A stretch of 64,000 bases of DNA from Cenococcum geophilum (Eukaryota). Numbering within the stretch: position 1 is the stretch's first letter; each line of letters starts with the position of its first letter. Of this stretch, positions 26,285 to 62,398 are shown one piece after another. The stretch covers positions 15,686,001 to 15,750,000 of the forward strand of contig CP158635.1 in assembly GCA_050273025.1 (NCBI GenBank), read 5' to 3'. The notes beneath the pieces are model-generated. The model worked only from the letters and a program-made list of their open reading frames with translations. It was not told the DNA's origin and made no database searches. Position numbers and translations under genes: made by a program.

Positions 26285-26326
26285 TACTAGTAAGGAGGGC
26301 GGCCGAACCGCTCCGGCTATACTCTT
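26285..26326 (+). repeat. ~45-bp GC-rich dispersed motif, copy 1 of 7 (retro-target motif)
   Basis: Consensus CTAG(C/T)AGGGAGGGTGGCCGACCCGCTCTGGCCACACCCTTG. Other copies: 27626-27672(-), 34918-34965(+), 41596-41643(-), 50868-50915(+), 55404-55447(-), 61260-61303(-). Confidence 0.9.
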
Positions 26327-26338
26327 AAGGATATAGCC

Positions 26339-27625
26339 GATATATATACGTTTTTGTAGTATAAATAGTAGCAGCAGCAGCATTAAACCGCTTCGCACCA
26401 TTATTATCGCCTAGGTCATCACTAGCAGTAAGCTAAAATAACTTACTATTGCGTTCTAACGCGTTCTAACGATTGCGAAGCGCGTTATAACTACCGTCTA
26501 ATACCTCTACATTATCTTAAAACCTTATAAAACGCCTAGAAAACTATCTGTTAATATAGATATATATAAATCTACCTCCACAGCAGCTAGCAATATACGG
26601 CTTTTCCTACTCTATAAAATCTAGGAAAAATACTTACTTTTGTTATATCTATAATAAAGTAATAAGCGTATAATAGATGGTTACTTTAGGAGAATAGAGC
26701 AATAATAACCTCCTTAAATTTTATAAGGAGGATTGCCTCCTAGCAGATATAATATTCGATATAATTAATAATATTCTAATATTGTCGCCACTATTACCAC
26801 CACCCTCTATAAGCCCGCTTTAAGAACGCCTATTAGAATACGCTGCTGCTACTTCTCCCCCTCTTACCTTAACCAATACACCTACTTAGCCGTTGCCCTC
26901 CTCCCCTCGCCTAGTTTCTCCTATCCGTCCCTTATACGCCGTTATTACGTCTTGCCCTTACCTAACGTTACCATTACCGCTAGCAAAGCCTTGTTAATCT
27001 TTAGCCTCTATACTACTAGCACTAATAACTACACTGCGTACTTCTAGAGCCTCCCCGCCGGTATTAGCAACTACTCTATTACGGCGCCGCTTATTATATA
27101 TATTGTCGCCTATCCTCTCTATATATAACCTAGAACGCCAATTCTAAAATAAGTTAAGCCCCTTTTATAACTAGCACCTATATTACTCTATACGAAATCC
27201 CCCTAATACTAGTCTTATATAACTTTTATACGCTATTACAGACCTTATTGGATCTTATAATATAAGCTATATTATTAAATACAATTATTATCCTCCTATA
27301 TAGGATTAGCGAAGCACGAACCGTATATATAGTTTTTGTTTATTTAGGCTTATAGGAGATTATATTAAGATCTAAAAGAACTAAGATAGAGCAAAATGGT
27401 ACTCTGACTTACTATACTTTAACGGTATTATATTACTTTCCTTTATTTCCTATATTAATTATAGCGCCAAAGGAAGGAGAAATAGCTCTTATAGTTGGCT
27501 ACTAAATTGGAGCCGGTATAATTCGTGTCAGTTTACTCTAGTTAGCGCTTAGTAACGGCCTATACTCAAGTTAGACGGTGTATAGCTATAATAGAATATA
27601 TATATATACATATATATATATATAC
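26339..27625 (+). mobile_element. Non-autonomous retroposon element A, copy 1 (BIR-like ORF + LINE-type 3' tail)
   Basis: Colinear with 50929-52206. Ends GCTATAATAGAA-(TA/TACA)n. TSD AAGGATATAGCC (26327-26338) vs AAGGGTGTGGCC (27626-27637) differ only by G>A. RIP-broken ORF ~26365-27384. Confidence 0.85.
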
Positions 27626-27811
27626 AAGGGTGTGGCCAGAGCGGGTTGGCTAACCTCCCTACTAGTAGTGGCAACATCAAGTGCCAAATCATCTCTATTA
27701 CTGTCCGATATTACTTTATAAGCACGCTAACTCGGCTACGTAATGTCTAAGCTTAGCTACTTTTGCACTGCCTTATCTTATAAATCAGACCCTTAGTAGA
27801 CTATTAGTATA

Positions 27812-30009: not shown

Positions 30010-33000
30010 ATGTCTACCTAGACGGCGAACGTGGCGATGGAGTAAGCGCTGGCACTAACGCTAGCTAAAGAGCAGGGCGGAGAGCCAAATCTAGTCGACA
30101 TAACCGGCCTCTGCTTATTATCGCTCAATAGCGGCGGAGTTTAAGGTTTATCGACGCTCTATATCTTAAAGGGCCTTATAGCCTAACTAAACTAGGCACG
30201 TTAAGCTGCTAACCTTCCTTTAGTAAAGCTATGCGAAGTCTTTGACCTTATCGGAGGCACTAGCATAGGAGGGTATGTATAGTACTCTTTTTCGACGGTT
30301 TTATCTAATATAAGTAGGCTTATCGCTATTATGCTCGGCCGGCTTAAGATGGATATAGATAAATGCATTCTAGTATATAACAAACTTTTAAAGGCCGTGT
30401 TTAAGGAGAAGTTAAGCTGGCTTCTAGTTAGTTGGATAGGTAGAATAACGGCATAGTTCAATTTAAATAGGCTAAAAAGCGTAATTGAAGAAGTAATAGG
30501 CAGCAAAGGCGCCTCTACGGTGGATGTCTTTAATGATGGGAAGCTTCGTGGGTATCGAACGTAGGTATACCATAGCTACGACACGCGCACCGCTTATAGA
30601 CCAGCAGCTTCGTATGCACCGTTGCAAAAGAAACTGTTGGTATCACACGCCTAAGGAGCTATACCTTACCCGACGAGCGCGATATTCCTGCTACTATCTG
30701 CGAAGCAGCTCTTGCGACGTCCGCGGCGACCGGTTTCTTCGACGCTGTTTCTATCGGAGCGCGCCAGTTCGTGGACGGTGCCCTAGGTGCAAATAATCCT
30801 ATTAATGAGGTTAAAGGAGAGGCTACGAATATCTGGTGCTCTAGGACTGGCGACTTAAAGCCTTTAGTAAAGTGTTTTATCTTAATTAGGACAGGAAACC
30901 CTGGAAAGAAAGCGATTAAGGATAATATGCTTAAGTTTCTCTCTAAGACGCTAGTTAGGATCGTGACCGAGACAGAGGATACAGAAAGGAAATTCGTAGC
31001 TAGATAGGCTAAGCATTTTAACAAAAATCGCTATTTCCGCTTTAATGTTAATTAAGGACTTTAGTAAGTTGGCCTAGCTAAGTATAAGGAATAGGGTAGG
31101 ATTGAGGCAGTAATGGACAAATGCCTTAGATATTAAGCTCAGAAATTCCAAGTACGGGATTATATTTAGAACCTACGACAGAAGTAAAGTATATATATTA
31201 AGGTAGCAGATTAGTTGCCATTATTCTTAGGCTAATGTCGTTTAGGTAGAACAGATGCAAACTTTGCTGCTATTATATATATAAGGCAAGATAAAGACTA
31301 TATCAGTTCGGAGCTCACTCTATATAGGAATATAGTATTCGTATTATATAGCTTTATATAAGTATAGCGCCTTTCTCTTTTAAGTTACCCTTGTTAATTT
31401 CCATCTAGCCGCCCGTAAGGCTTGCTAGACCGTTCCTTTCGCAAGGAATCAGCGATTTATGGGCCGCCATTCTTAGCTTAATCAACTTAAAAACACCCTT
31501 TTCGCTAAAAACCAATCGCTAAAGTTTGCAATTACCGGCCTTGGAGGCGTAGGCAAGACCCAGATCGTGCTTAAGCTAGCCTACTAAATAAGAGAAAAAT
31601 ATCCAGAATGCTCTATTTTCTAGATACTAGCCACTAACACTAAAAGCCTTTAACAAGCGTACCTTAACGTTGGTTGGCAACTTAGAATACCCGGACTATA
31701 GGAGGAGTAGGCTAATGTAAAGAAGCTAGTATAACGTTACTTAAGTCAGGAGAGTACGGGCCAGTGGCTGCTTATATTTAATAATGCTGATAATATAGAT
31801 ATATGGATTAATAAAGGCGGGAATAAGAATGATTTCTATAGTTTAAAGGACTACCTACTAAGGAGCCGTCAAGGGTATGTTATTCTTATAACGCGAAGTA
31901 GGAAAATTGCCGTTAAGCTCGTATAGTCTAATATAATTAAAGTCTTAAAGATAGACAAAAAGGTGGCCACGTAGTTGCTAAGCAAATCCTTAATTAATTA
32001 GGAGCTCTTAAGCAACCACTAGGAGGATACTCTAAAGCTACTCCAATAACTTACTTTCCTCCCCCTTACAATTATATAGGCAGCTATATATATTAACGAG
32101 AACGGAATAACGCTATCGGACTATCTATTGCTCCTAGAGGAGTAAGAGTAAGACATTATCGATCTCCTTAGCGAAGACTTTGAAGACGAAGGGAGATACT
32201 AGGACGTTAAGAATCCCATAGCAACTACATAGCTAATCTCATTTAAACACATCCGGCGGCTTGACCCCCTTACGGCCGAGTATTTGTTATTTATATCGTG
32301 CGTAAACCCGAAGAACATCCTGCAGTCGCTTCTTCCGCCGGCACAATCTCGGAAGAAGGAGACGGACGCGATCGGGACGCTAGACGCTTATTCTTTTGTT
32401 AGTAGGCGACCTAGGGATCACGCTCTCGACGTCCATTGACTGGTGCATCTCGCAATACGGAACTGGCTTAGGAGAGAAGAGTCGCTAATACGGTGGGCTG
32501 CGAAGGCGATAAAGCGATTAGAAGAAGTGTTTTTAAACCACGACTATAAGAACAGGAGCGTATAGAGAGCATACTTGGCGCATGCGCGTTATATGCTTAA
32601 ATCTAATAATATAAAGGATGGTATGCAAGAGAGAATAGAACTCCTTTAGAAGTTCGCCATGTGCCTTTATAGTGATGGGAGGTATAATAAAGTAGAGAAA
32701 CTATTTTTATAAGTAATGGAGACAAAACAGAGGGTGTTAGGGGTAAAGTATCCTTCCACGCTGACTAGCATGGCTAACCTGGCGTTAACGTACATAAATT
32801 AAGGGCGGTGGAAGGAGGCTAAAGAGCTGGAGGTACAAGTAATGGAGACAAGTTTAAGGGTGCTTAGGGCGAAGCATCCTTTCACGCTAAGCAGCATGGG
32901 TAACCTAGCGTCGATATACAGTGATCAAGGGCGGTGGAAGGAGGCCAAAGAGCTGGACGTGCAAGTAATGGAGGTAAGAAAGAGGGTGCTTGGGGCGGAG

Positions 33001-33576
33001 TATCCTTCCACGCTAAGCAGCATGGCTAACCTAGCGTCAACGTATAGGGATTAAGGGCGGTGGAACGAGGCCGAAGAGCTAGACGTGCAAGTAATGGAGA
33101 CAAGAAAGAGGGTACTTAGGGCAGAGCATCCTTTTACGCTAACCAGTATGGCCAACCTGGCGTTAACGTATAGGAATTAAGGGCGGTAGAAGGAGGCCGA
33201 AGAGCTAGAGGTATAAGTAATGGAGACGTTTAAGAGGGTACTTAGGGCGGAGTATCCTTTTACGCTGACTAGCATGGGTAACCTGGCGTTGATGTATAGG
33301 AATTAAGGGCGGTGGAAGGAGGCCGAAGAGCTGTCTATGTAAGTAATGGAGACGAGTTTAAGGGTGCTTGGGGCGGAGTATTTAGATACGCTAACTAGTA
33401 TAAACAATCTCGCATTTATGTTTAAAGCCTAAGGCTGTAACGTTAAGGCTATTTTACTAATGGAAAAATGCTTTTAGCTACGGAAATAGGTCCTTGGCCC
33501 TTAGCATCTATATACTATATTATTGCTTATAGCTCTAAATAAGTGGTAGCTAAAGAATATAGAGATTGGAGTTTAA
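30010..33576 (+). pseudogene. Fungal NLR: patatin-like phospholipase - NB-ARC - TPR; RIP-inactivated
   Basis: LCLLSL(DG)GGV(R)GLS, FDLIGGTS(T)GG and FVDGALGANNP (patatin). AITGLGGVGKTQI Walker A (~31528-31566), WLLIF(D)NADD Walker B, FLPL, VHxLVH. TPRs HPSTLTSMANLASTYxxQGRWKEAEEL with a 126-bp period (32803, 32929, 33055, 33181, 33307). Stop at 33574-33576. Confidence 0.93.
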
Positions 33577-34876: not shown

Positions 34877-34978
34877 TAATGTCTAACGGTAATAAAAGTG
34901 ATTTGGTACTAAATGTTGCCACTATAAGTAGGGAGGGTGGCCGACCCGCATAGGCTATACCCTTGTTTTCGTGGCGTA

Positions 34979-35194
34979 TGTATGGCTATAATAGAATATA
35001 CACCACCCTGGTATATCCGGTTGAAAGCGTATATTAATCTTAGTAGTTAAACGGCAGATTTTATACCTTTTAAAGTAATACGCACGGCCACTTTAATATA
35101 TTTTTACCTTTTTTAGGTATAAATCTAGGCATTTTAATTAGCGTGATTAATACGCGCTTTTAACCGGATGCGCCAAGGTGGTGTATATATATAC
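34979..35194 (+). mobile_element. Extremely 5'-truncated LINE-tail insertion containing a nested MITE
   Basis: TGTATGGCTATAATAGAATA-(TA)n-C is flanked by a perfect 14-bp TSD GTTTTCGTGGCGTA (34965-34978 and 35195-35208). Confidence 0.85.
35001..35183. mobile_element. Tc1/mariner-like MITE inserted in the (TA)n retro-tail
   Basis: TIRs CACCACCCTGGTATATCCGGTTGAAAGCG / CGCTTTTAACCGGATGCGCCAAGGTGGTG, with TA flanks. Confidence 0.85.
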
Positions 35195-35374
35195 GTTTTC
35201 GTGGCGTACACTTTAAAAGTCTTTTAAAAAGGACACGTTGTTAATAAGTAAGGCTAGTTTGGGTGCCCGTAATGGGGCACCTAACACTTAATTAAATTTA
35301 GTTTAGCGGATAATAAACCCTAGTCTAAAGCGAATAGCTGTAAAAAGCCAGTACTTGGTATACTTACGATATTG

Positions 35375-35766
35375 ATAAGTACCTATAAGTAGGAGTACCT
35401 ATAATTACGGGGAACACCTATAATAGAAGGGAGTATTTATAATAGGGAGTACTCCTAATAGTAAGGAGTACCTATAACAATAAGGAGTACCTACGACAAT
35501 GAGGAGTACCTACAACAATAAGGAGTATCTATAATGGGGAGTACTCCTAATAGTGAGGAGTACCTACGATAATGAGGAGTACTTACGACAATGAGGAGTA
35601 CCTACGACAATGAGGAGTACCTACGATAATGAGGAGTACCTATAACAATGAGGAGTACCCGCGATAAAGGGGAGTGCCTATGGTAACGGGGAGTACCTAT
35701 AATGTTAGGGAGTACCTATAATGGTGGGTACCTATAATAGTTGGGAGTAACGGGGAGTGCCTATAG
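35375..35766. repeat. 19-bp minisatellite (GAGGAGTACCTACGACAAT)n
   Basis: About 20 tandem units, degenerate at the edges. Confidence 0.92.
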
Positions 35767-39858: not shown

Positions 39859-40149
39859 ATAAAATAACATTTTATTGTCCTATAGTCTTCTACTATATAA
39901 GTTAAAGTTTTATAGAGATTTGGGCGGCTAAGGCTAGGTAGCAGCCTTAGTTAAAACGTATGTAAAATAGCGTAGGGCGAGTTGCCTGGGCTAAATAAAC
40001 CCGGGAAAGCGGATAACCTAATCTTCCGCCAAATTATTAGATCTCTATACCCTACTATCCTATATAGGCTTTATGTTTCTATAAAATATGTAATCCACTT
40101 TCTAGCCTATTAGAAGCCGCCTTGTGCCGCCTAAATAGAGGCCGTAGGA

Positions 40150-41595: not shown

Positions 41596-44500
41596 TAAAG
41601 GTGTAGTCAGAATAGGTTGGCTACCCTCCCTACTAGTAGTGGCGATGTGTAACCTAAACTAATGCTGAACTAACGCCTTTTATATACTTTAAGGACGCTT
41701 ATACGCTAATAGATAAAAGCCGGTCTATAATATATTTAAGAACCTTACTAGTATACTACTTATTGCTATACGCTAACTAGGGCATATAAATAATAGAGGA
41801 TTATGCTAACTTTATACGCGCCTTATAAACTATCTTATAGGAATAAATAGCCTTTAGCTATACTGCGTTTCTTAAACTAGAGATAAATAGTACTTAAAGC
41901 AAGTAATAGTAGTAGAATGCTCCGGGCTAAGTGCACGTTTATATCCACTGCTTACCCTTTAATATAGTACTAAAGCAGCTTTATATTGTTACTATTAATA
42001 AAATAGAAAAGCTAGGTAGTATATACTAGTTAATATATTAGGGTGCTCCTTTCCTAGTGCCTTTTCTCTTCCCTTTAGCGCCTGCCAGTTTATCTCCTCT
42101 ATTACTTTATACTTTCCCTAATACTGTAGTACCGACGCTATAATGCTAGTGCTTACTAGGGTATAAAGATTATTACCCCCTACCATCCTCTCCCTAAGTC
42201 GTCATTACTTTTATTACTATACTCTCAGCTATTTATAGCTCCCCTTCGTCTATATATACTATATAGCGTTACTTAACAATTACGCCTAGTTCCCTAGTAA
42301 TTCTTTATTAGCTAGTTTGCCCTTTAATATAGACTTAATATAGGGAAACAACTTCTAGCACTTCGTCCGGTTCTTAAATCTCCTATTAAGGAATCCTCTT
42401 GCTATTAACATAAAAGGCTTCTATCTCCATCGCTCTACCTTATTAAATGACAATAGCTAGACCCTTATGCAGAACCGCATTAACTAGTACATCTTATACA
42501 CATCGCTCTTCGTAGCTGCTGTTATTAGCAAATAGGCACGTAAATATATCTAGGTCGTCGTTAAACTCGCCATTGTTATTATTATCCTTATCCTTATCCT
42601 TATTATTACTTTTTTCTCTTAAGTAATACCTGCCAGGTAGTTGTATGTCAGGTGGTTTTTATATCCTAGTTTCCCTTAATAGCCTCCCTAGATAGATAAT
42701 CGCATCGCCTAAGCAAAGGCAGTAAGTAATATAGTTATAGTATAGTTAGTGCGTTAATGAAAATTTTTTATTACACTGACTTTGCGCCTTAGTGAGTATT
42801 AGGTAGTTTGTTAATGTTTATCCAATACTACTCTTAAAGGTAACCTGCCTTATTAGGAGAAGGTATTAGAGTAAAAGTGCCGCCAATAGGTCGATAATTG
42901 GCGCGCTTTCTTTTTGCTTTAACAAGATAGCACTTAATATAAGATAGCTCGTTCTTAATAGGTATATAGTAAAAAACCAGCTTCGTAAGTTGCGTTAGGG
43001 AGACTTCTATATAGGTCTAGCTTTTTAAATAACTAATAGCGTGCTACGATTGTTAAAGAGGTAAAAGAGGTAATTTAAGATAGTAGAGGTAACGGCTATA
43101 GCTAAGGTAGAGGGCGTAATAATAATATAGGTTTTAAGGCGATATAAAGTGTTAACAGCGGATTAAGCTAATTAGAACTTGGCCTTAAAAAGACAGATAT
43201 GAAATTCTAGCGGTGATCTCTATACTTCTATACTCTAGGTAGAAGCACTATTTAGCTCTTATTAATAGTAAGGATCTAGCTATAGCCCTTATTTTTATAA
43301 CTAAGCCAACTATATAGTTTGCCAGCTTAGCGTTTTAGTGCTACGTAAAAAGGCTGTTACCTATCTACTCCTTAAAATGTCTCTTCCCTTTAACACACAT
43401 CCTTTTAACTATTTAGCTCCTAATCTGGTACCTAGGTTTATTATAGTTTTTATACTATGCCATTCCCTATATACTAGGGATATGCGTTTAACCTCTCTAG
43501 TAATATGTTTTAAAACTCCGATGCCGTTTTACTAACGGCCAATCTATCTAATATTAACGTTACCGCGCCAAAATACAACACTATACCAATATTAGTTAAC
43601 TATATAGACCTAGCTAAATTTATCACAAGCGATGTAGAGCTTACTATTTATCGCAGATTCAACAGCAGTATAGCTTAAATTCTTCTCTCTTTATAGAGCG
43701 AGATATAGCAAAAATAAAATCTTTTTAATAATGAGACTAATAAGTCTAAAAAGAAAGAACTCCTCTTAAGTATAAAAATATAAATAAAAGATTACTATAA
43801 GTAAATGCAGTATTCTAGCACGGCTTTAAAGATAATAAGACTAATAAATGTTATAGATAAGATATTAATCCTCTAAAGCCAAGTTCTAAAACTTTAGCCG
43901 CTAGTTAAACGTGTTATATAAACTTTCTTCTATTAGCTAGACTATAAATGCCCTTCCTTACGGCATAAAACTGAAGTGTTCACTAAGTATAATAAGGCAG
44001 ATATAATAGCATTAAGACCAGCGGAGGGTAATAATCCGTTTTTACGTTTCTTAAGGGATAACTTTAGTAGGGTACTAAGGGTAAGGCTACAGTACCCATA
44101 TATAGTTAATGGCTAATACGCTAACTAAAAGGTAATATAATAGAGAAAGAATAATAACTCCTTAAAAGAACCTGAGCTAGGTAGAGAACTTTACTATATC
44201 CCAGAATCTTATATTATAAAGGTTATAACGGTAATAAGCATCGCCATTACAGCTATTATACTAGTGGCTATAATTATATTATTATACTATATAAGCTCGC
44301 CGGGAGCTAGGCTAGGCATAGTTACCGCCTATATATTAGTCTTTGTAGTTAGCATCGCTCTATTCTCCGCATAAAGAGTAGAGGTTTTTATAGCTACTAT
44401 AGCGTAAGTTAAGACTTTGATTTAAGTATAAATATCTCTTCTAAAGTAATTTACTAATTATATATCGGACTTACGCAGATTTAGAGCAATCTTAGTAGTT

Positions 44501-47724: not shown

Positions 47725-49774
47725 CTTAGGGAGAAAGCATATTAAATTAATTACTAAATAGATTACATTCTGTCCAACTAAGTTTGCAAGCCCATACTAA
47801 TGCTTACTACTATTTTAGATTTACAAAATTCCCGCTTATAAAAACTACTAAGATTGCTCCAAATCTGCGTAAGTCCGATATATAATTAGTAAATCACTTT
47901 AGGAGAGATATTTATACTTAAATTAAAGTCTTAACTTACGCTGCGGTGGCCGCGAAAACCTTTACTCTTTATATAGTTAAGAATAGAGCGATACTGACCG
48001 CAAATACCAACGTATAGGCGGTAACTATACCTAGCCTAGCTCCCGGTAAGCTTACATAGTATAATAATATAATCGCAGCCACTAGTATAATAGCTGTAAT
48101 AGCGATGCTTATTACCGTCACAACCTTTATAATATGAGATTCTGGAATATAGTAAAGTTCTCTATCTAGCTTAGTGTCTTTTTAAGAGTTGTTATTCTTT
48201 CTCTATTATATTGCCTTTCGGTTAGCGTATTAACCATTAACTATATATAGGTACTGTAGCCTTACCCTTAGTACCCTACTAAAGTTATCCCTCAAGAAAC
48301 ATAAAAACGGATTATCACCCTCCGCTAGTCTTAATGCTATTATATCTGCCTTATTATGCTTAGTGAACACTTTAGTTCTATACCGTAAGGAAGCGCATTT
48401 ACAGTCTAGCTATTAGAAGAAAGTTTATATAGCGCGTTTAACTAGCGGCTAAAATTTTAGAACTTAGCTCTGGAGGATTAATATCTCATCTATAATATTT
48501 ATTAGTCTTATTATCTTTAAAGCCGTACTAGAATGCTGCATTTACTTACAGTAATCTTTTATTAGTATCTTTATACTTAGGAGAAGTGCTTTCTTTTTAG
48601 ACTCGATAGTCTTATTATTATTATTCATATTTCCCCAATAACTTACTAGCAATGCCGCGGATTTCCCCCCTATATTATACCGATTGAGCTTATTTAAAAG
48701 ATCTTAGTTTTACTATATCTCGCTCTGTAAATAGAGAAGAATTTAAGCTATGCTGCTATTAAATCTACGATAAATAGTAAGCTCCGCGTTACTTGCGATA
48801 AATCCGGCTAGGGCTATATAGTTAACTAATATTAGTATGGTGTTATATTCCAGCGCGGTGACGTTAATATTAGATAGATTGACCGTTGGCAAAACGGTAT
48901 TGGAGTTTTAAGATATATCGCTAGAAAGGCTAAGCGCTTATCCCCGGCATATAGGGAATGGCGTAGTATAATAAACCTAGGTACTAGATTGGGAGCTAAA
49001 CGGTTAAGAGGACGCCTGTTAAAGGGAAGAGACGCTTTAAGTAGACGGGTAACAGCCTTTTTGCGTGGCACTGAAACGCCAAGCCAGTAAACCACGTAGC
49101 TGGCTTAGTTATAGAAATAAGGGCTATAGCTAGATCCTTACTATTAATTAAGAGCCAAATAGTGCTTCCACGCAGCCAGAGTATGGAAGCACAGAGATCA
49201 CCGCTAGAATTTCGTATCTATCTTTTTAAGGCCAAGTTCTAATCAATTTGATCCGCTGTTAATACTTTATATCGCCTTAAAACCTATACCATCGTTACGC
49301 CCTCCGCCTTAGCTATAGTCGTCACCTCTACTATTTTAAATCGCCTCCTTTACCTTTTTAACGATTACAGCACGCTATTAGACGTTTAAAAAACTAGATC
49401 TATATAAAAGTCTCCTTAATACAACTCGCAAAAGCTGGTTTTTTACTACATACCTATTAAAAACAAGCTATCTTATATTAAGTGCTATCGTATTAAAGTA
49501 AAAAGAAAGCGCGCCAGATTATCGACCTAATGGCGGCACTCTCACTCCAGTGCCTTCTCCTAGTAAGGCAGGTCACCTTTAAGAGTACTATTAAATAAAT
49601 ATTAATAAACTACTTAATACTCGCTAGGGTGCGAAGTTAGCGTAATAAAAAAATTTCATTAATACGCCGGCTATATTATAACTACATTACCTACTACCTT
49701 CGCTTAGGCAATACGATTATCTATTTAGGGAGGCCATTAAGGGAAACTGGGATACGAAAACTACCTGACGTATA

Positions 49775-50665
49775 ACTACCCGGCAGATATTACTTAAGCA
49801 CATTTATAAGGAGAGGCGTTTTACTGCTAACCTATTGTCACTAATAAGCTTCTTTAACCCGCAAGGGATTCTAGAGTTAGTACTGCACAGCTATTTAACT
49901 AATGTAATAGAAAGGAGTAAGGACGAGGACAAGGACAATAATAATAATAGCGAGTTTAATAACGACCTAGATACATTACGTGCCTATTTGCTGGTAATAG
50001 CAGCTTTAGAAAGCGATGCGTGCGAAATACACTAGTTAGTGCAGTTCTGCACAAGGGTCTAGCTATTGTCATTTAATAAGGTAGAGTAATAGAGATAGAA
50101 GTTTTTTATATTAATAGTAAGAGAATTCCCTAACGGGAGATTTAAGAACTAGACGAAGTGCTAGAAGCTACTTCCCCACATTAAGTCTATATTGGAGGGC
50201 GAACTAGCTAATAAAGAATTACTAGGAAACTAGGCGTAATTACTAAGTAAACGCTATATAGTATATATAGATAAAGGGGAGCTATAAACAGCTAAGAGTA
50301 TGGCAATGAAAGCGATAACAACCAGGGAGAGAATAGTAGAAAGTAATAATCTTTATACCCTAATAAGCACTAGCATTGTGGCGTCAGTGCTATAATATTA
50401 GGGAAAGCGTAAAGCGGTAGAGGAGATAAACTAGTAGGCGCTAAAGGGAAGAGAGAAGGCGCTAGGAAAGGAGCACCCCAATATACTAACCAGCGTATAC
50501 TACCTAGCTTTTCCTTTTTATTAACAGCAATAATACAAAGCTGCTTTAGTACTATATTAAAGGGCAAGTAGCGGATATAAATATACACTTAGCCTAGAGT
50601 ATCCTACTACTATTACTTGCTTTAAGCACTATTCGTCTCTAATTTAGGAAACGCAGTATAGCTAA
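49775..50665 (+). pseudogene. C-terminal half (winged-helix + TPR) of an NB-ARC-TPR NLR
   Basis: LLSL(M)SFFNPQGI, DLDTLRAYLLV, CE(M)HxLVQFCTRV(W)L, KC(Q)KLLPH, GREKALGKEHPxTLTSVYxLA, E(H)PTTIxC. No P-loop is seen upstream. Confidence 0.82.
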
Positions 50666-50928
50666 AGGCTATTTATTCCTATAAGATGCGCGCGTATAAG
50701 GTTAGTATAATACTCTATTATTTATATATCCTAGTTAGCGTATAGTAGTAAACAGTATATAGGTAAGGTACTTTAATAGGTTATAGATTAGCTTTTATCT
50801 ATTAGTATATAAGCGCCCTTAGAGTATATAGAAGGTATTAGTTTAAGGTTAGTTTAGGTTATATATTGCCACTACTAGTAGGGAGGGTAGCCGACCCACT
50901 CTGGCTATACTTTTGTTAAGATAGAGGG

Positions 50929-52206
50929 TAATATATACGTTTTTATAGTATAAATGGCAGCAGCAGTAGCATTAAACCGCTTCGCACCGTTATTATCGCC
51001 TAGGTTATCACCAGCAGCAAGCTAAAGCAACTCACTATCACGTTCTAATGCGTCCTAACGATTGTGAAGCGCGTTATAACTACTATCTAATACCTCTATA
51101 TTATCTCGAAACCTTATAAGACGCTTAGAAAACTATCTGTTAATATAGATATATATAAATCTACCTCTACAGCAGCTAGCGATATACGGCTTTTCCTACT
51201 CTATAAAATCTGGGAAAAACACTTACTTTTATTATGTCTATAATAAAGTAATAAGTATATAATAGATAGTTACTTTAGGAGAATAGAGCAACAATAACCT
51301 CCTTAAATTTTATAAGGAGAATTGCCTCCTAGTAGATACAATATTCAATATAATTAATAATATTCCAATATTATCGCCACTATTACTACTACCCTTTATA
51401 AGCCCGCTCTAAGAACGCCCATTAAAATACGCTACTACTACTCCTTCCCCTCTTACCTTAACCGATACACCTACCTAGCTATCGCCCTTCTTCCCTCGCC
51501 TAGTTTCTCCTGTCCGTCCCTTATACGCTACTATTACGTCTTGCTCTTACCTAATATTACTATTACCGCTAGCGAAGCCTCGTCAATCTTTAGCCTCTAC
51601 ACTACTAGCACTAATAACTATACTATATACTTCTAGAGCCTCCCTACTAGTACCAGTGACTACTCTATTACAGCGCCGCTTACCACATATATTATTACTT
51701 ATCCTCTCTATATATAACCTAGAACGCCAATTCTAAAATAAGTTAAGCCCCTTTTATAACTAGCACCTATATTACTCTACACGAAATCCCCCTAACACTA
51801 GTCTTATACGACTTTTGCACACTATTGTAAACCTTATTAGATCTTATAATATAAGCTATATTATTAAATATAATTATTATCCTTCTATATAGGATTAGCG
51901 AAGTATAAACTATACACGCAGTTTTCGTTTATTTAGGCTTATAGGAGATTATATTAAGATCTAGAAGAACTAAAATAGAGTAAAATAGTACTCTAACTTA
52001 CTATACTTTAACGGTATTATATTACTTTCCTTTATTTCCTATATTAATTACAGCGCTAAAGGAAGGAGAAATAGCTCTTATAGTTAGCTACTAAATTAAA
52101 GCCGGTATAATTCATATTAGTTTACTCTAGTTAGCGCTTAGTAACGGCCTATACCTAAGTTAGACGGTATATAGCTATAATAGAACATATATATATATAT
52201 ATATAC
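50929..52206 (+). mobile_element. Non-autonomous retroposon element A, copy 2
   Basis: ATG at 50954 (MAAAVALNRFAPL..), LINE-type tail and (TA)n. TSD GTTAAGATAGAGGG (50915-50928) vs GTCGAGATAGAGGG (52207-52220). Confidence 0.88.
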
Positions 52207-52220
52207 GTCGAGATAGAGGG

Positions 52221-53582
52221 CCAGGACAGGTTAATATATATATTAATACATCGGTTCATAATAGTAGGGCAGGGGTTGGCGTGTATACTACGCTATCTAA
52301 AGTAATGCTTTTGAAAACGGTAGCAAGCTCCAATTAGGCCGACGCCTACCTTATAAAGCTTCTAGCAATTAGCGAGGCAGCTAACTAGCTATAGAACCCT
52401 ACGTGCACGGCTGTCAACTAAATAGGTTTTCCAATACCTGCTTCTAGTATAAGAATATTCTCCAACTTGTAATTAGCGTTGCTATTAGTATAGAGCTAGA
52501 GGGCTAGAGTATGCTAGGAAGTAATCGCAGAGATCTTAAAGAAGCTTTAGCTAAACAATATCACGCTATACTAGATTCTAGACCACTCGGGATTTGTAGG
52601 AAATAAAAAGGCCGACAAGCTTACTAAAGCAGCGATAAGACTAGAGAGTAAGGAGCCACTACAAAGGGACGGCCTCCTATAGTACCTTGTAACGCAAGCC
52701 TTAAAAAGAGCCGAGATAATAACAGGACCGCTTCTATTAGAAAGATCTAATACTAGCAAATTTATAAGGAAGATTGACGCAGTACTCCACCTTAGAAGGG
52801 CGGTAGGATTATACTAGCAGCTAATCAGCTCCGAAGTAGCCATCCTTACGCAGCTATAGACCGGCAAGTCATTTCTAAAGAAATATCTCTATAAAATTAA
52901 TGTATTAGAGACGGCGTTATACAACTACGGGCTTATAGAATTAATACAGCACTTCCTTTTCTCCTATAGGAGGTGGGCGCAGTAGAGAATTAAACTAAGA
53001 GAGCAGTATAGAGACCGATTTGGGGATCTATTATATATATTAGGAGGCTACTTAAGCAGATGAGAAGGAGGCAGGAATATTAACGGCCCAATTAAACGCT
53101 GGAAGCCAGATATTAGCGTAGTTAAAGCTACAATCGAATTCACAAAGGAGACTAGACGTTTATACCTAAGTATATAAGACGCAGAAAGTATAGAAGCTAA
53201 CATTAATAAGTAAAGACTCTTAAGAATCCCTCCTCCAATTATCTAACCAAATATACCGCGAGCCTTATCTACACATACCTCCACTAGTGCGTTACCGATT
53301 AAGAAGCGCATAACGCTAGAATAGCCCTGCGGATATAAGGCGTCGAAAACTACTTACCTGGGCTCGCCTCTAAACTTTAACTTTCTTTTAATAGTAACGT
53401 ATTACTTTCCTTTATTTCCTTAGTTAAGTATAATATTAGGTAATAGATATATAGTTCTTATAGTTGGCTTCTAAACTAGAGCATACATATTAATAGCAGG
53501 AAGTATTTAGTTAGCGCTCTATAACGGCCTATACCCTAAATAGTATATGGCTATAATAAAATATATATATATATATACATAT
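52221..53582 (+). mobile_element. 5'-truncated Tad1-like LINE: RNase H domain + C-terminal Cys/His finger + 3' UTR/tail
   Basis: IY(TD)xSV, (E)LLAI, IFS(DSQ)SAL, (W)I(PG)HSGFVGN(E)KADKL, ILTQLRTG, (C)x(C)G..(ES)IQHFLFS(C). Stop ~53246. A third target copy GTCGAGATGGAGG follows at 53583-53595. Confidence 0.92.
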
Positions 53583-53880
53583 GTCGAGATGGAGGAAGTG
53601 GGAATAAAGTGTAGGTGAAAAGTTTTAGTAAGTGCTGACCGATCTAAGCGGCAATTAAGCCCCAGCCACGTGTAGCGGAGTTAGTGTTTTGGGTACCCCA
53701 CAATACGCCGCTTCGGAAGCGGATTAAACTCCTTGCTCCGCAGCTAAGCGGGGTTACGAAACCTTACTACCAAATGATTCGATATTATAATAATTAAGGG
53801 GGAATCTGTGCTAAAGTCTCTTATCTAATGCTAAGGTGTCTAATATGATTGTTACGAATTACGAGTGAAAACTTATGTTT

Positions 53881-55119
53881 TTATTCTGACGAAGAGCTTC
53901 TTATTAATGTATTTTTATACTCTAGGTCATTATCTACTATACGCTTCAATGCTCTCTCCTCTTGATTAATATACCTCGCTTTATTGCTAGAAGCGATATA
54001 ATCTAGAGGTATCTCTAATCTTTTCCGCTTCTTAAGTCTAGGAGCCATTAAATGCTTGCTAAGTAATCCCAGCTATCGTACCTTAGTCTCCGCCGTGGTA
54101 AGGTACTGGTAGAGTTATTGGGCAGAGATTACTAATCCTAGATCCTAATCTCCAATCTTACCCTGTATAAGTTCTTTATAAGCAAAGTCTATAAGTTTAA
54201 GTTAAAGGCCTAGATAATTAGTAGGATTTCCTTAGTTGTTGCGGAACGCCTATAAAGAATATCAGATATTAGATAAAAGAGCGTCGTTTTAAAATAGAGT
54301 ATACCTTATCTATAACTTCTTAAACTACTTTTAATTTATCTCTATTAGTAGTATAGAATATACAAGTTTACTATACCAATAACATCGCCTTGCGCGACTA
54401 CTTCCTGCCGTATTTAATGTCTAAGCCAATAATAACCTATACGCTCGCATCTAAATCTAGAAGATAGTCTTCGGCTAGCCTACCTAACCTCTTCCTCTTT
54501 TGTAAATATATAACTTTAATTATAACGCTAGGATATTATACATTATCGTGCTAGAAAGAGGCGTCCGGCTTATATTTTAACTTTATGCTAGGCGAAGCGC
54601 CGTTAACTAGAAAATAAATCTCGGTAGAACGGGCTGGCCGCACCTTCTGCGCGAAAAGGGCTGCCTTGTCTGACCCGTTGCGAATTACCTTTAGCTAACT
54701 TTAAATTGTGTCCTTAATACTATTAATAAAGAGCTTATATATACTAGTCGGCATACAGATAACAAGTCGGTGGCTTCTTACGTTATAGTTATACCTGTCC
54801 GATTTCCATCATCAGCTACGCCTGTATTATTCTTTAAGGCTATGTACCGTATCTTATCCTTAGCATACCTAAATAGCGCCTCGTCTCGCCTAAGCTGACG
54901 CTTTATATTATTATACTCTCCTTATAAAAGCTGAAATTCTGTCTATGGGTGTTCCTTAATATGTCTTCCAGCTTTAATATCTTTAAAAAGCGCAATAAGT
55001 CGGGGAGCTTAGGTAAAGGCTTTCTTGTTAATTGGCGGAGGCGTTAAAGGCGCGCTTACGAAGCTTAAAGGCGGTGTAATATGCCGATTATCTTTTATAG
55101 GAGTCTGCGACGTAGACAT
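53881..55119 (-). pseudogene. PD-(D/E)xK / Uma2-like restriction-endonuclease-fold protein relic (2 introns)
   Basis: MSTSQTP..PLTPPP..KDKIR / YDY..LVICMPTxxHELF..KYKPDASF(W)HDNxxYPSVII(E)VxY(S)QKRKRL..LAEDYLL. Intact ATG at 55119 and TAA at 53881-53883. The family assignment comes from recalled motifs. Confidence 0.65.
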
Positions 55120-58100
55120 AGCCGTATGTTATGCTATAAGTTAGGCCGCATTGCGAAGTTAAACGGTGACCGTCGCGAAAACTGGTTGGGGTTTGGCGGT
55201 TCCTTACGCTTCAAGTTAACTCAGCAACCGTGCCACTAAACAGCCGAGCAGCACACAAAAGCGTTGGTGGGGACTGTGGCGTGTGGATGCGGCAGTGCTT
55301 TACCGCTATAACGCCACGCCCAAAACACTTGGTTCCAACGCCAACTACTTTTTAAGGTTGAAAAATAGAGAATATAGAGGAAATGGGCAACTATAGACCC
55401 TTATAAGGGTGTAGCCAGAGCGGGTCGGCACCCTCCCTACTAGCGCCGGCATAACGTTAAAGTAAATTCACACAGCATCGGAACCCTCAACAAAGGGCAA
55501 GACGGTTTTCAAGTCACTTGCAAAAGGGATTAGCAGACATGTTTTTTAAGCCCTAATTCAAAAAGCTTCTTTGAAGGAAAAGGGTAGTGATTATAGGCAT
55601 AAAGCAGGTGCTAAGAAAGTACTAATAGTAGATATATGAAAATGAAAATAACTTTAACACTATAAAGAAGAAGCTGTTTCTGTATAAAGAGCCCTATAGA
55701 CCTAGTATGCCGGACAAGTTCCTATATAATAGATCCTATAGGCTTAAAGAACTAAAGAAATTCCTATAAGAGAAGCCTAATGAATTTGGTGACAAGTAGA
55801 AGTCCTATTATACTTCCTCCTAACCCTTTCCTATTATATTAATAGAGGTATATAATCCCACTTAGTAGATTGCAATAGATGGAATAAGCGCTAAAGAGTA
55901 TACACTAGATATTATTCTTTAACTCTTTAATATATAAATCTATAAGCCCACTAACCTTAAACACGACTGGTACTTACTTAGGATGTAAGTGTTTAAGCTT
56001 AGAAAGAAACTTATAGAGTTTAGGGTTATTATTATATATTAGTTGTCCTTTATTGGTAATACAGTGAATAAAATCTTCTGCCCGTATTAAGAGACTTAAG
56101 AGATTATTATAAATTATATAGAGCTCGGAAGAGGTCAAGCTAAAAGAGACGAAAGTGTAGGTTTTAGAACATAGACAGACCACTAGGCGTTTTACAGGCA
56201 TTCTATAATTTCTTATTAAATTTCTACTTTATTCTTCCGTATAGTATTACACTTATAGAGTCTTACCTATTAAATTACGCCAAATCCTAAGTTCTCTATT
56301 ATCACTCGATAATCCATTATCGTCACTCCGGCTTAGTTTATCAATATTGGTAGTATTAATTCGCCCTTCTACTAGGTCACTTTAGCGTAATCTGTTAATA
56401 GAGTGGCTAGAAGTCTGTAGCTTATTACTATCATTTAAAACTACCGTCTCTTTATTACTATCTTTATTACTATCCTCTTTTTATCCTTAATTATAAGGTG
56501 TGAAATATATAACGCTAGGGTAGTATATATAGATCGTTTCCTAAGCTCTTCCTGCAGACCTATGAGAATTATTAGCAATCTAATTTAGGTTTGTCTGAGG
56601 CATATATATAATAGGACTTATTTAACGAGCACAGAAAAGAACTATATTTTAGTAAGGCTTAGTATTTAGGGAAAAGCTAGCTTGATCTGAGGACATTTTA
56701 AGGTAAGGTGAATGCTACCTTTATAATATTTCCTCTACTGCTTAGCTAAGCTAAGACTAAGTTTAGAAAGAGAGATTAATATTACCTAAATAAGGCGAAG
56801 TATATTAGCGGCCCCTTTACCCTAAAGCTGGCGTATAATATCCGTTGGCTATAATTACTTCTTACTTGGTGTACTGTTTATGCCTAAAAGCGTAGGCTGC
56901 TAGACTAAATCTAACGGTAGCTGTTTAAATTAAAGGAGGCATTGCTAGGGGTAATTATTGGCTAAGCTGTTACTAAATATAAATACCTAACTAAAATATA
57001 TTATATTAGTGCGGAAGAACTAACGCACTAGTCTCTAGCTTTGTAAGCAGTGCTTAGCTGTTATTATTTATTAGATTATAAGTAGTCTTAATGCTCTAGC
57101 TCTTGTTAGTATTAATATAAAGAAGCTTATATAAACACCGCATACTTTAACGGCTGGAGAAGTTTATATGAATTTGTTAACTAGGATTGTGTAAGTTACT
57201 CTAAGATTGATATTTCTGCCTAAATCCATATGACGTGGGTGAAAGTAATGCCGCCTTCTAAGCGCTGTACTATGTTTTTAAGGCATGTAGTATAAGTAAG
57301 GAGTTAGGAGATAAAGCTGCGGCGTATTTAGCCACCTTTGACGTAACTGAGAAGAAGTTTAGGAATATAGTTTCTACTCTATTTGGAACCGGATAAGGGC
57401 TTCTGTATACTAGTGTTTAGGGGTAGCCCTAATAGTTGATTATTGTTTAAAGTTGATGATCCGGCCAAGCTAAGTTTTACGCTTAGAATTAAATAGGGGA
57501 TTTATTTGATATTATAAGAAGAAGCTTAGATACTGGATGCTAGTAGAGGTATTAGCCCCCTAAATACCTAGAAGCTATAGGTAGTAAAGAGATTATCCTA
57601 TAACTATTAATATGACTTAGTATTGCGGCGAAGCAGCTTGCGTAATTTAATATTTTTAGATTAGAGCTGTGCTTCTAGCGTTAGTCCTACGAGGGCATAA
57701 AGGGCGCTATTGCGTAGTTTTTTTTGCTTTATAGTACTTATAATTCCTAATTCTTTTATACTAGCCCTAAGCTCTTACCAGCTATGCTTTCTCTAGTTAA
57801 GGACCACTCGCAGCCGTCTAATTTTAGATAGGTGGGAATACTATCTTTACCTGCCCTAATATCCGGAATGGAAATTTCGTATCCTTACGACACCTAAGAG
57901 TATAAGGATGTGTATATCTTGGGAATAGACTATACGGAAAGCCATAGTAAGGCCAGCCCTATATTTTAAGTTTGGCTTATTAATCTTCTTACCTAATAAT
58001 AGGCTCGTCTGACCCCGCGAATATAGTCGCTAATGTTGAGTACGTTTTTTTAATACCTTCTAGTAAGATAGCCGGATAATTATAGATCTTTCAATTACAC

Positions 58101-59533
58101 TAATAGCTAAGTAGGTGACGATAAAGCCCACTTTATGGATGTTTCTAATAATAGCTTAGATTATAAAAGCGAAGATAAACAGCCTATTAGATTCCTAAGA
58201 AGACCAAACTAAATTTTAGAAGGCGTAATTAAAAACGGTGCACTTAAATACTGGGTAGAGTGGAAGCCTAGGCTGACGAGCATTAGAGCCACGGAGAGAA
58301 ATAAGAATTTAAGGTATTGCTCGGTTTATATTATGGATGGAGTAGTAGTTTTATGCTAGAAGCCTATTAAAGAGCCTATAACTAACCTAATGTCCTATAA
58401 ACTTTAATCTTATTATAAAAAGAATCTTAGTAAGTTTATTAAGTATATTATAAGGTTCCGAGAGCTTAGAGAGGCGCTTAAAAAGAAAGACAGAAAAACA
58501 CTTATGGCTTTAGTAGATAAGAGTGGAATATAGAAGGGACTTAGATTAACCTCACGAAACGCCATTAATAAAAGTAGTAAAAAAGAGATTAACGGCAAAT
58601 CTTTAAAAGCGAAAGAGAAGTAGAGATTACCCCTAAATATATGGCGTGTAGTGGGCTTAGGCCTAAATAATTTGGGAATAGAACTTTCTCCTATAGTACT
58701 TTAATAGTTTTTAAATAATTATTAAGTATTTCTAGTTACTGTTAAGCAATTTAATTATTTCCTATATATAATACGTTTTAGTCTTATTTATCCTACTATT
58801 TCTTAGGAATATCCTAATATAAGTGGGAATAGCTGGAGGTTCTAAGGGCTCTTAAGCAAGGCTTATAAAGCAGAATAATATATACTATATATGCTATATA
58901 ACTATAGAAAAGAGTTTATTAAAAGGCGGAACATTAGATAGTTAGACAAAGGTTAAGCTTAGGTCTACGTCCTTACTGCTAGTGAATTCCGCCTGCTAAG
59001 ACCACCTGGACTAGACGAGGTCTCTAAACTAGGTTAGGCATATTTATTCTTAAATATAAAAATCAAAAGCACTTAATAAATGTTATAGGCTTTTATAGCA
59101 GAAGCAGTTGTTCTAGTACGTTTGATAGCACTGCCTAAGATAACAACTTTCTTGCTAATGCTTTCTAAAATATTTAAGTTAGGACTAGGACTAGATAGTT
59201 AGTACAAGCTCTATTAATTTCCTTATATTAGTGCTATTTGCGTTGTCTTATCTGCTATAATGGATAAGTAAACGCACCTACTTACTTATAACGGATCTTA
59301 ACTATAGTCCCTTAAGCTAGCTGGTCTACAAAGAGCGCGCCACGCGTTTACGGATCATAAAACAAATTTTCTACTCTGAGTTCCCTTACGGAGATCCTAT
59401 CTAGTACTAGCTAGCATTTACCCCGCCATTAGAAACTCTTAGCATCTACCCCATATACTATCCTGTAGCGAAAGTACGTTTAAACACTAACCTCTCCCTT
59501 TATTCGCGTTTAAAAATTAAACGCCTCTTAAAC

Positions 59534-61246
59534 GTATGTATGTATATATGTATAATCTATTATAGCCATATACTATCTAGGGTATAGGCCGTTACTAAGC
59601 GCTAACTAGAGTAAACTAATACAAATTATACCTGCTTTAATTTAGTAGCTAACTATAAGGGCTATTTCTCCTTCCTTTTACGCTGTAATTAATATAGGAA
59701 ATAAAGAGAGAGTATATAAACCTAAGAGATAAAGAGCGTATATATATGTTGAAATTCCATCCTATAACCTACCCGTATCCGCCTATACCCTTAAGGAGCG
59801 CCTCCCTAGCCTCTATTACCGATAACTGCAATAGCTGCTTCCCTTAGTAGCAGTTTACTAAGTTATATTATTCTTAAACGGCCTAATACTAATAAGCAGG
59901 TTAAGAGGGCGGCGGCAATTACGTATTAAGGCGAGATCTAAAACAAAATTTAATAGAGAATAAGAATAGGGACCCGGTTACCTATGCTACTAAATTATAA
60001 GAATCCTGTCCTTCTCTTTCCTATATACTGGGCATTTACGGTATAAGGCTTAGTGTGGGCCTTAGCAGTTTACGTAGCGCAGGTTTACTGTCTTATACTA
60101 GAGATAACCTTCCTAGCCACACATATCGTATATATTGGGTCATATATAGTCTCTAGCTCTATATCTAAACCTTTTACATTTAAAACATGCCACTAGAGTG
60201 CGTCGCTCTTTAAATAGCGATACTACAATCGTACCTCCACTAAACGACACACTATCTATCCTAAGAAGCTTCTCCGTGTCCTCCTTTGTTGCTACCTTAA
60301 TAACCACTAACACATGCTAGCTACTAGGCCTTAGTCTTCCGAGCCATCTCATTATATATACCTCCACCCCATTCTCCTCCCTAAACCGCTCTATAGCTAA
60401 TTTACTTACTTTCCCACTATTAATATTTATTGCTAGAGCCACTTTAACCTAGTCCGCTTTAACTGTATACTACTTAGGTCCGATAAGCCTCGCCCTAGGG
60501 ATATACGGTTTAAGCTACTATATAGTTATCTACCGGAACGCGGCCTCTTTATCCTTTTCCACTAAGAATTTAATAACGCTTATATTATCATTCGCTCGCT
60601 ATACGCGGAAGTCCTTAACTATAGCCCCCGTAAGTCTCTTAACATCACTTATACCCTACATAATAGTTTATTTTACCACCTCTATATTCACTATCTTCTC
60701 TATCACTCCCTATCCCGCTTAGCTAATATTAATCACTAGCTAACCGTTGGGCTCCTTATAAGGGTCCCCAGCGCTTATTATTCGCAAAAGTTATCCCTAA
60801 TCCTGCTACGCCTCTACTAGCCGCTACTGACGCCCATAATTATATTAATGGAGGCGATACTAAAAAATTATTAAACTGCGTTCGGAGAGAACGGATCTCC
60901 TCCTAAAGTTCGGCGTATTGGCTCTTAAGGCTCTGCTGTTCTAAGTAGATCTCTACAAGGTCGTCTTAGACGCTTTTGATAATGCTGTTCTAGTTCATAA
61001 TAACGCTACTCTGCTATGTTATAATCTCTTTCAGATTTGTGATAAGCCTCGCGATTTCCTCTAAGTTAGTGCTTCTTCCCTCGCGTTTAGGTGAGACGGA
61101 GACGCTTGCGGTAGGGAATGGGGGTAGTCCATTCTGCGTTGATCGTGGCGCGATTGTTTGTGTTTTTAGCGACTGCTAGGCCTCTAGCGCCTTCGCGCTC
61201 GGTTTCCTTGTACGTCCTCTTATTGGAGCTGCTGGCGTGGCCAGAG
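59534..61246 (-). mobile_element. Gag/ORF1-only non-autonomous retroelement with LINE-type 3' tail
   Basis: RIP-broken ORF ~61223-59978 (RGRTRKPSAKALEA, coiled coil, SWASVAA, three Cys/His knuckles CFKCKRF(GH)xxRD(C) .. CGxEG(H) .. NCxGPH). No EN/RT. Tail ends CATACATAC. Perfect 14-bp TSD AACGCCTCTTAAAC (59520-59533, 61247-61260). Confidence 0.92.
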
Positions 61247-62398
61247 AACGCCTCTTAAACAAGGGTGTGGCCAGAGCGGGTCGGCACCCTCCCTGCTAGC
61301 GCCTGTAGATGGCAGCATCGTGACGATGGTTCTGGAAGAGTCCTCTACATTCTTTCCTGCTTACATAAGCAGATTCCCTTTATTTCCATCTTACCTCAGC
61401 GAGCTCAGACGTGAATTTAATTGGAGCGGATGTTCCTTCGGCCCGTCAGCAAGCTAACTAACATCCACCAAAATCACGTCTAAGGCACTTTGGCGAGATT
61501 TGTTAAAATTATAACCAAAATCTTAATTTTGGCGATTTTATAAGGGGATTTCCTCCACGATATAATAAAATAAAGTCTTCAGAAGTTCATAGATGAATTT
61601 TAGGAGGCTACTTTACATATTAAATATTTTAGAATTATATTGTTCCCTTCCAAATCTAAGATTAATTTCGTTAAAGTTGAAATTCCCGTTGTTAAAACTA
61701 TGAGCTTCTTTTGTATAGGCCTATATGGGCCTATATAAAGGTATAAAAAGCCTAAAATCTTATAATTTATAGAGCTAGATCTCCTGAGTAATTTAATATA
61801 ATTTTTACCTTAAAAGACGCTGTAGGGATGTTGATCAATTTTGTTGGGGTTTATGAGTTTTCCTTACTAAAAAAGCTCGTGCTTCTATACAAATCTCGCC
61901 AAAGCGCCTCAGACTAAGAAATCGATCAAATATCCGAAGGAGATTAGCGCGCCAGCGTAATCGATTTCTTAGTCTAAGCTTCTGAGGTAAGTTTCCATCT
62001 TGGTCGACATCCATAAGCAATTGCTTATGACTTATAGGTATAGGCCTATATAAAGGCCTATATTTGTTGTAGATAGATTCTATATATAGATTCATTCATT
62101 CCAATATTATCTAGTTTATTACATCGAAATGCGTTCTAGTAATATGGCAAACAGGAGCTTGCTATACCCTAACTTTTAGCGTGAAAAAGGCATTGCCTTA
62201 TTCCTGTCCTTCGTTCTTCACTAGTAAATAAGATCTATATGCTATATGCGATAAAGACCGTTCCAAGCTGGTAATCTCAAGCCGATCTATATTACTCAAA
62301 TGCCTAGGTCTTTAGCGCCCTTTATTGTCGGTGTGTCTTAAAGACAGTATATACTGCTTAGGAGGCACGCTTTATATAGCGTATTCCGCTAGATATAG

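Follow-up and report, generated by a model that had tools for sequence, protein, structure and literature searches.

Among long interspersed nuclear elements (LINEs) with one preferred target, Tx1L of Xenopus sits inside the Tx1D DNA transposon, R1 leaves a target site duplication (TSD) of about 14 bp, and the telomere-targeting MoTeRs of fungi carry restriction-like endonucleases. The Tx group is target-specific (PMC3747384, PMC4640811), and so is the R1 clade despite its apurinic-type endonuclease (PMC4640811). Tad1 falls with R1 in the RNase H-bearing I group, and the passages of PMC4640811 that list target-specific groups name the early-branched, Tx1 and R1 groups and do not include the Tad1 clade. 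In a Dothideomycete rich in repeat-induced point mutation (RIP), Tad1 is reported to be the dominant LINE superfamily, and the passages of that study considered here hold nothing on Tad1 insertion sites (PMC12910237). Here we describe LINE inserts in a 64,000-nucleotide stretch of the Cenococcum geophilum genome (assembly GCA_050273025.1, contig CP158635.1, positions 15,686,001 to 15,750,000 of the forward strand), the whole of which we call the window and to which all coordinates refer. An initial annotation of this DNA had proposed a target-specific Tad1-like family that inserts at another repeat. Our analysis supports that proposal, with “Tad1-like” meant in the sense of domain architecture and host and not of a reverse transcriptase (RT) tree. 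We consider it very probable that a LINE with an apurinic-type endonuclease, RT and RNase H, together with its non-autonomous derivatives, is target-specific for an imperfect hairpin of about 50 bp. The junction, the orientation, the TSDs of 12-14 bp, the re-use of a site, the empty sites and the spread across many contigs can all be read directly from the DNA.

With Tx1L and the Tx1 group this system has in common the apurinic-type endonuclease and the use of one defined site in another repeat, in one orientation. It differs from Tx1 in its fungal host, in a second open reading frame (ORF2) that includes RNase H, and in an architecture that is Tad1-like and not L1-like; its target, moreover, is a hairpin that ends units carrying NOD-like receptor (NLR) or HET genes. 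R1 is an arthropod element of 28S rDNA or other host multicopy genes, whereas the target here is the terminus of a dispersed repeat in a fungus. The likeness to Tad1 of Neurospora and to the Tad1 LINEs of Pezizomycotina lies in the endonuclease, RT and RNase H of ORF2, in a host with RIP and in putative CCHC knuckles of ORF1, seen here by eye. Insertion at a single nucleotide position sets it apart from the Tad1 clade as listed in the passages cited above. FoTeRs, in the part of their description considered here, are fungal non-LTR (long terminal repeat) elements confined to one kind of repeat, those of telomeres, in contrast to an interstitial hairpin motif, and the apurinic type of the endonuclease distinguishes our LINE from MoTeRs. 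A literature search found neither a target-specific Tad1-like element nor the motif around NLR or HET genes described, and the motif-bearing units may be a more novel part of the system than the LINE. If a fungal Tad1-like lineage inserts at one nucleotide beside a hairpin, specificity would have arisen independently a third time, after Tx1 and R1, and a compact target (about 50 bp plus 14 bp) would become available for work on how such an endonuclease recognises DNA by sequence or by structure. Targeting of the motif would also explain how a LINE persists in a RIP-active genome without disrupting genes.

A RIP-tolerant search of the window returned seven motif copies, exactly those of the initial annotation; the strict pattern with at most 3 mismatches returned only 2, where shuffles expect 0. 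Three copies lie on the plus strand: s1L (26279..26326; search match 26292-26327), which is RIP-mutated and ends in ...CTCTT, s2 (34916..34964; search match 34930-34965) and s3 (50866..50914; search match 50880-50915). The other four lie on the minus strand: s1R (27625..27674; search match 27625-27660), the inverted partner of s2; e41 (41596..41645; search match 41596-41631), the partner of s3; e55 (55404..55449; search match 55404-55439); and s4 (61260..61303; search match 61260-61295), the least RIP-mutated of all. LINE tails with 0-1 mismatch occur at 27581, 34981, 52170 and 53546 on the plus strand and at 59555 on the minus strand, and the inserts that bear them were said to stand directly 3' of a motif, in its orientation. 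This holds for all five, each of which starts right after ...CACCCTT. Direct reading likewise confirms TSDs of 12-14 bp with a fixed start, right after CCCTT. The description of the TSDs as mutually different needs qualifying: their sequences do vary by site, but they are not unrelated, as they begin with GT and many fit GTnnAGrTGGCG loosely. The initial GT belongs to the conserved end of the motif (G in 102 and T in 112 of the 121 non-identical loci introduced below). Similarly, the copies at 41596 and 55404, which had been called empty, are indeed without a LINE, but both are adjoined by a recurrent repeat, family D (41595-41353 and 55403-55070, respectively). Window self-comparison placed copies of the LINE 3' region, about 190 bp long, only at 27418-27617, 52017-52208, 53387-53584 and 59719-59532. 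Four further tail matches with 3 mismatches (209, 25671, 51233 and 58503) compare with a chance expectation of 5.2, and self-BLAST found no LINE 3' homology at these positions.

At the first site, insert 1 (26341..27625, plus strand) is a 1.3-kb non-autonomous LINE derivative, 89% identical to 50930-52205, whose last 190 bp or so and tail are in common with the LINE. The upstream TSD copy (26327..26340, plus strand, AAGGATATAGCCGA) is a RIP-mutated form of the downstream copy (27626-27639, AAGGGTGTGGCCAG), the first 12 nt being alike save for three G>A changes. Since the latter is also the first 14 nt of s1R, the site before insertion consisted of two motifs face to face with a perfect junction (...CACCCTT|AAGGGTG...), a motif-to-motif palindrome. 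Insert 2 (34965..35208 with both TSDs, plus strand) consists of about 25 bp of LINE tail only, split by a miniature inverted-repeat transposable element (MITE) of about 180 bp, and its TSD is exact (34965-34978 = 35195-35208, GTTTTCGTGGCGTA). This MITE-like element, at about 35003-35183, has inverted ends CACCACCCTGG...CCAAGGTGGTG and lies inside the TA-rich LINE tail; a relative of it stands 3 nt past the motif end in another locus (L092).

Two inserts are stacked at the third site (50915..53595, plus strand), with family K as the flank from 53584. Insert 3a (50929-52206, plus strand) is the 1.3-kb derivative, and insert 3b (52221-53582, plus strand) is a 5'-truncated LINE with the C-terminus of RNase H (a weak Pfam match) and the 3' untranslated region (UTR). 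Around them stand three copies of one TSD, at 50915-50928 (GTTAAGATAGAGGG), 52207-52220 (GTCGAGATAGAGGG) and 53583-53595 (GTCGAGATGGAGG), which means that the same nucleotide was targeted twice. Insert 4 (59520..61260 with both TSDs, minus strand) is a LINE copy in which the ORF1 region is joined to the 3' end of about 190 bp and the tail; on the minus strand its TSD is exact (61247-61260 = 59520-59533, GTTTAAGAGGCGTT). With five differing 5' ends and four differing TSDs, the five inserts of the window are separate events at one nucleotide beside the motif.

It could be argued that the motif and the LINE form one composite whose copies arose through duplication or as the motif-bearing unit transposed, so that their adjacency was inherited. 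Such units are multi-copy, and the alignment of window positions 26285-27616 with 50873-52205, at 89% identity, runs from the motif across the TSD region into the insert. We nevertheless hold this to be very improbable, as a TSD sits between motif and LINE, the TSDs of sites 1 and 3 differ (AAGGGTGTGGCCAG versus GTCGAGATGGAGGG), each site has its own truncation point and its own sequences on either side (upstream arm and downstream flank), and empty junctions exist.

The empty junctions come from contigs in which the flank families seen beside inserts join the motif without interruption. In six loci (L011, L037, L064, L074, L076 and L089) the motif is followed directly by family C with no insert. 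The L076 contig matches the motif and TSD of site 4 (11411-11466 against window 61302-61247, 96%) and then continues into the sequence beyond the insert (11453-15609 against window 59533-55399, 90.9% over 4157 bp). This contig is the uninterrupted form of site 4, from which the window differs by the LINE and one 14-bp duplication, as expected of an empty site of a target-specific LINE. Family K, the flank of site 3, is uninterrupted in L071 and L114 and is preceded by a tail-only insert in L070. These junctions also bear on the order of events. Motif-bearing units might have inserted beside the 5' ends of LINEs or beside TSD-like sequences, which would reverse the causality; semi-conserved post-motif sequences would fit, as would the non-LINE families (B, C, D, K and others) that always start exactly at the motif end. 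We regard this as highly unlikely, given that the 5' ends of the LINEs are variable truncation points offering no common target, that the 14 nt duplicated are those with which the downstream unit opens, a unit found uninterrupted in the L076 contig, and that the stacked inserts have one TSD in common. The idea that families B, C, D, K and others are mobilised by the LINE was rejected, since they lack LINE homology and a tail and their TSDs do not recur.

To look beyond the window, metagenome contigs were scanned for the 21-nt motif core, which yielded at least 123 loci, 121 of them non-identical. Over the 121, conservation is strong from about -49 to +1 and stays below 0.4 bit from +2 on; this abrupt fall makes the 3' end of the motif sharp and puts the LINE nick 2 nt inside it. 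BLAST with pieces of the LINE detected LINE-derived DNA in 24 of the at least 123 loci. In 20 of the 24, the LINE starts between +3 and +49 from the indexed motif end, on the strand of the motif; in a 21st case (L063), a degenerate second motif stands next to a LINE 3' end on the reverse strand. Independent insertions at the same nucleotide and in the same orientation are found both in the window (5/5) and in these loci, which come from unrelated contigs (20/24 plus L063). The copies at the motif comprise 5'-truncated LINEs (L006, L028), short LINE 3' ends (L035, L085, L122, L060), the 1.3-kb element (L015) and full-length LINE 5' UTRs (L029, L055, L080, L084, L097, L113). A further set, family A, is LINE-derived with a constant internal LINE start (L005, L017, L018, L040, L066, L101, L116), and in L066 it is a copy of about 320 bp with a tail. 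Where both ends lie in the locus, the 12-mer that follows the motif is repeated after the tail in 6 loci, with a match of 12/12 in L028 and L085 and of about 10/12 in L006, L036, L060 and L066.

The copies in L006 and L028 encode the end of RNase H (IFSDSQSAL...HSGFVGNEKADKLAK) and a cysteine/histidine-rich tail, a zinc-finger C-terminus; at the motif, only the RNase H and zinc-finger part was read. A protein search with 123 aa of the L006 RNase H part returned 38 relatives, those named being from Periconia, Paraphaeosphaeria and Monosporascus. One of them (P0008, 1299 aa), at 72% identity across the 123 aa of the query, carries Exo_endo_phos_2 (107-241), RVT_1 (517-771) and RNase_H (961-1096), an ORF2 with apurinic-type endonuclease, RT and RNase H as in the I group that includes Tad1 (PMC4640811); a second, P0013, has RVT_1 and RNase_H. 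An X-read translation of the ORF1 region (59537-61246) suggests, by eye, a coiled coil and CFKC...C and C..C knuckles, and gave no match in Pfam. We call the LINE Tad1-like on the basis of domain architecture and host. One Monosporascus gene model among the relatives (P0028) reads as a PNP_UDP-NACHT-ankyrin NLR, followed by ...GPSRLPHTL and then by a LINE RNase H fragment in its last 200 residues or so, and the HTL is the peptide encoded by CACACCCTT. Most likely the model joins a gene to a LINE insert that lies downstream of it, and it gives a weak hint, at the protein level, that the same arrangement of motif and LINE may occur in a Sordariomycete.

Several observations weigh against target specificity of the LINE or limit how far it can be carried. 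Three of the 24 LINE-bearing loci (L004, L062, L069) have no recognisable motif at the junction. The loci were picked by the motif, so that they speak to positional precision and not to what fraction of all LINE copies stands at a motif; the sole unbiased sample for that fraction is the 64-kb window (5/5). The TSD region itself is semi-conserved, with GTnnAGrTGGCG in roughly a third of loci as judged by eye, and recognition may therefore reach downstream of the nick or be aided there. Finally, no intact full-length LINE was recovered, and Pfam found neither RVT_1 nor an endonuclease in the degenerate long copies of L055 and L062, which leaves the 72%-identical relative P0008 as the sole source for the endonuclease and RT.

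Target-primed reverse transcription is the established model behind the nick positions proposed here. In this mechanism, a protein of the LINE machinery would recognise the ...GCTAGCAGGGAGGGYGGCCGACCCGCTCYGGCCACACCCTT|GT hairpin motif, reading either its sequence or a cruciform. The bottom strand would be nicked first, at the point facing CCCTT^GT, where the bases paired with T(-1) and G(0) adjoin, and reverse transcription would be primed there from the (TACA/TA)n tail; a second nick on the top strand, 12-14 nt downstream, would then give rise to the TSD. As the nick lies downstream of the recognised motif, which insertion spares, the site would be reusable and inserts would stack between the motif and the older insert. 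The main rival to a specificity of its own is that the LINE has none and uses a nick or break made at the motif by a transposase or recombinase of the unit or by cleavage of a cruciform, the 3'-OH serving as primer. The insertion position, 2 nt inside the sharp end of the unit, is where a transposase would be expected to cut, and the motif does fold as an imperfect hairpin. However, endonuclease-independent insertions are usually without TSDs, and the regular TSDs of 12-14 bp and intact tails in every case seen form the canonical endonuclease-dependent pattern, which argues against a borrowed nick. Units that are heavily RIP-mutated, and presumably immobile, were also hit repeatedly (site 3), and Pfam scans found no transposase for the units. 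We consider this rival improbable and favour a LINE that recognises the motif through its own machinery.

The leaders of the inserted copies are also informative. The 1.3-kb elements of the window begin with (TA)nTAC and then GTTTTTGTAGTATA, a RIP-mutated form of GTTTTCGTGGCGTA, among the commonest 14-mers after the motif; in insert 1, we read this leader as an old TSD carried in the transcript. The inserted copy in L015 has 22 nt of the motif at its 5' end, and full-length LINE 5' ends start with the TSD-like AAGTCGCCT. The TSD-like leaders on full-length and 1.3-kb copies suggest that transcription of source copies starts at the motif boundary or just inside it, and that the old TSD travels with the RNA.

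The target itself deserves attention. Its core is predicted to fold as an imperfect hairpin, GTGGCCG-ACCCGCTC-CGGCCAC, extended by ACAAGCAGGG/CCCTTGT. A longer, locus-specific hairpin (-62..-36 pairing with +0..+16) was rejected, as real pairs scored no better than permuted ones (z = -0.1). The motif forms the sharp end of multi-copy units of 1.3-9 kb, and hence belongs to another repeat. For example, L021, L031, L037 and L064 are alike at 88-92% over at least 2.7 kb upstream and have three different downstream flanks, and L022 and L065 are alike at 97% over 2.7 kb with differing flanks. The upstream and downstream sides of the motif assort independently. On the downstream side, the motif end is the exact starting point of about ten non-LINE families (B, C, D, E, F, G, H, I, K) in every case seen, including 4/4 in the window (41353-41595, 55070-55403, 53584-53743 and 59302-59533), so that the units seem to abut one another. 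One of these units, a 4.15-kb repeat on the minus strand (55404..59533), has family C at its 5' end and motif e55 at its 3' end, and is thus unlike at its two ends; in the L076 contig another motif precedes it immediately, without an intervening LINE.

Motifs often occur as inverted, outward-facing pairs whose arms match each other, so that inverted repeats are present at both ends of such units, and what they enclose is often a single gene of NLR or HET type. The arms of one pair (L011/L006) are about 98% identical over 97 nt, another pair (L048/L018) encloses 3.06 kb around one 530-aa HET gene, and a further pair is L099/L100. In the window, s1R and s2 bracket 7.3 kb around a Patatin-NB-ARC-TPR gene remnant, and e41 and s3 stand at the outer ends of an inverted duplication of about 3 kb (41591-44795 versus 50920-46292, 84-89% identity), in which remnants of DUF7779/TPR and of a DUF6594 gene (E = 6e-28) lie on opposite strands. 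Arms most often belong to a family of about 170 nt whose inner start is fairly sharp. Domains read in the window and the loci with Pfam were HET, NB-ARC/NACHT-TPR and Clr5, which, like the genera named above for the protein relatives, accord with a filamentous ascomycete, and among 30 long ORFs from 26 loci (at most 3 kb from the motif), NLR- or HET-type domains were found in 13 loci. Two RIP-degraded NLR-like genes of the window, one reading Clr5...TPR upstream of s1L and the other Patatin-NB-ARC-TPR between s1R and s2, contain TPR_10/TPR_12 repeats with a period of 126 bp (42 aa) at 24199-25597 and 32677-33434.

None of the known classes that we considered accommodates these units. As simple terminal inverted repeat (TIR) transposons they were rejected for want of a TSD and of a transposase and because the ends of the 4.15-kb unit are unlike. 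No fixed-length TSD was found, in that there was no direct repeat upstream of units and paired flanks inspected by eye had no TSD of 2-9 bp; an 8-bp repeat around the L043 palindrome was not replicated. Pfam searches of unit interiors gave NLR, HET, DUF6594 or nothing, and no transposase; the interior of the L064 unit had no Pfam domain, and DDE_1 was seen in 2 loci only (L020, L069). In L069, the stretch from +470 to +640 is a tail-only LINE insert between GYTTTCGTGGCG repeats, beside a 5'-truncated LINE, with no recognisable motif upstream and a pogo-like DDE_1 ORF nearby. In Helitrons, a few nt separate a GC-rich hairpin from the 3' end, the ends are 5'-TC and 3'-CTRR, insertion is between A and T, and a Rep/helicase is encoded; here the hairpin ends about 6 nt before CCCTT, the end is CCCTTGT and not CTRR, inverted pairs occur, and no Rep/helicase was found. 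A role as a short interspersed nuclear element (SINE) partner of the LINE was likewise rejected, since the motif is unlike the LINE 3' end and tail and neither a TSD nor a tRNA or Rfam match was found (Rfam on 8 loci gave 0 matches). If the motif were itself a retroposed insert, a third TSD copy might stand upstream of it; none was convincing in searches that were too permissive and noisy. Inward-facing pairs, as in a palindromic MITE, fit L043, L061 and L012 and are contradicted elsewhere by upstream homology of at least 2.7 kb with differing flanks.

A tentative reading, which we hold to be possible but doubtful, is that the motif marks the ends of undescribed mobile cassettes, widespread in Pezizomycotina, that move single allorecognition genes of NLR or HET type, with the LINE co-evolved to land nowhere but at their ends and perhaps to use these as its promoter. 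End-to-end abutting without a TSD would fit a hairpin-recognising nuclease or recombinase as part of such a cassette. A conserved hairpin at the ends of units around NLR and HET genes, seen in many fungal contigs, may bear on the duplication and movement of these fast-evolving genes for self/non-self recognition.

The setting of these repeats is AT-rich, with a GC content of about 31-45% per kb, and C>T and G>A changes make up most of the differences between repeat copies, as would be expected where RIP has degraded a block of fungal repeats. Intact long ORFs are absent from the window, in which only 8 stop-to-stop frames reach 100 aa or more, and a tRNA scan of it gave 0 genes. Four DNA runs compared over window positions 41401-61400 yielded contigs of 100-900 bp and no joint that cleanly skips an insert or a unit. 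Self-comparison revealed arrays of short-period tandem repeats at 10989-11656, 35361-35764 and 40134-40552. Over 46070-47403, the summed contig depth in the four DNA runs reaches 2,000-30,000, as against single to double digits nearby, and this segment of the window thus matches something extremely abundant in those runs.

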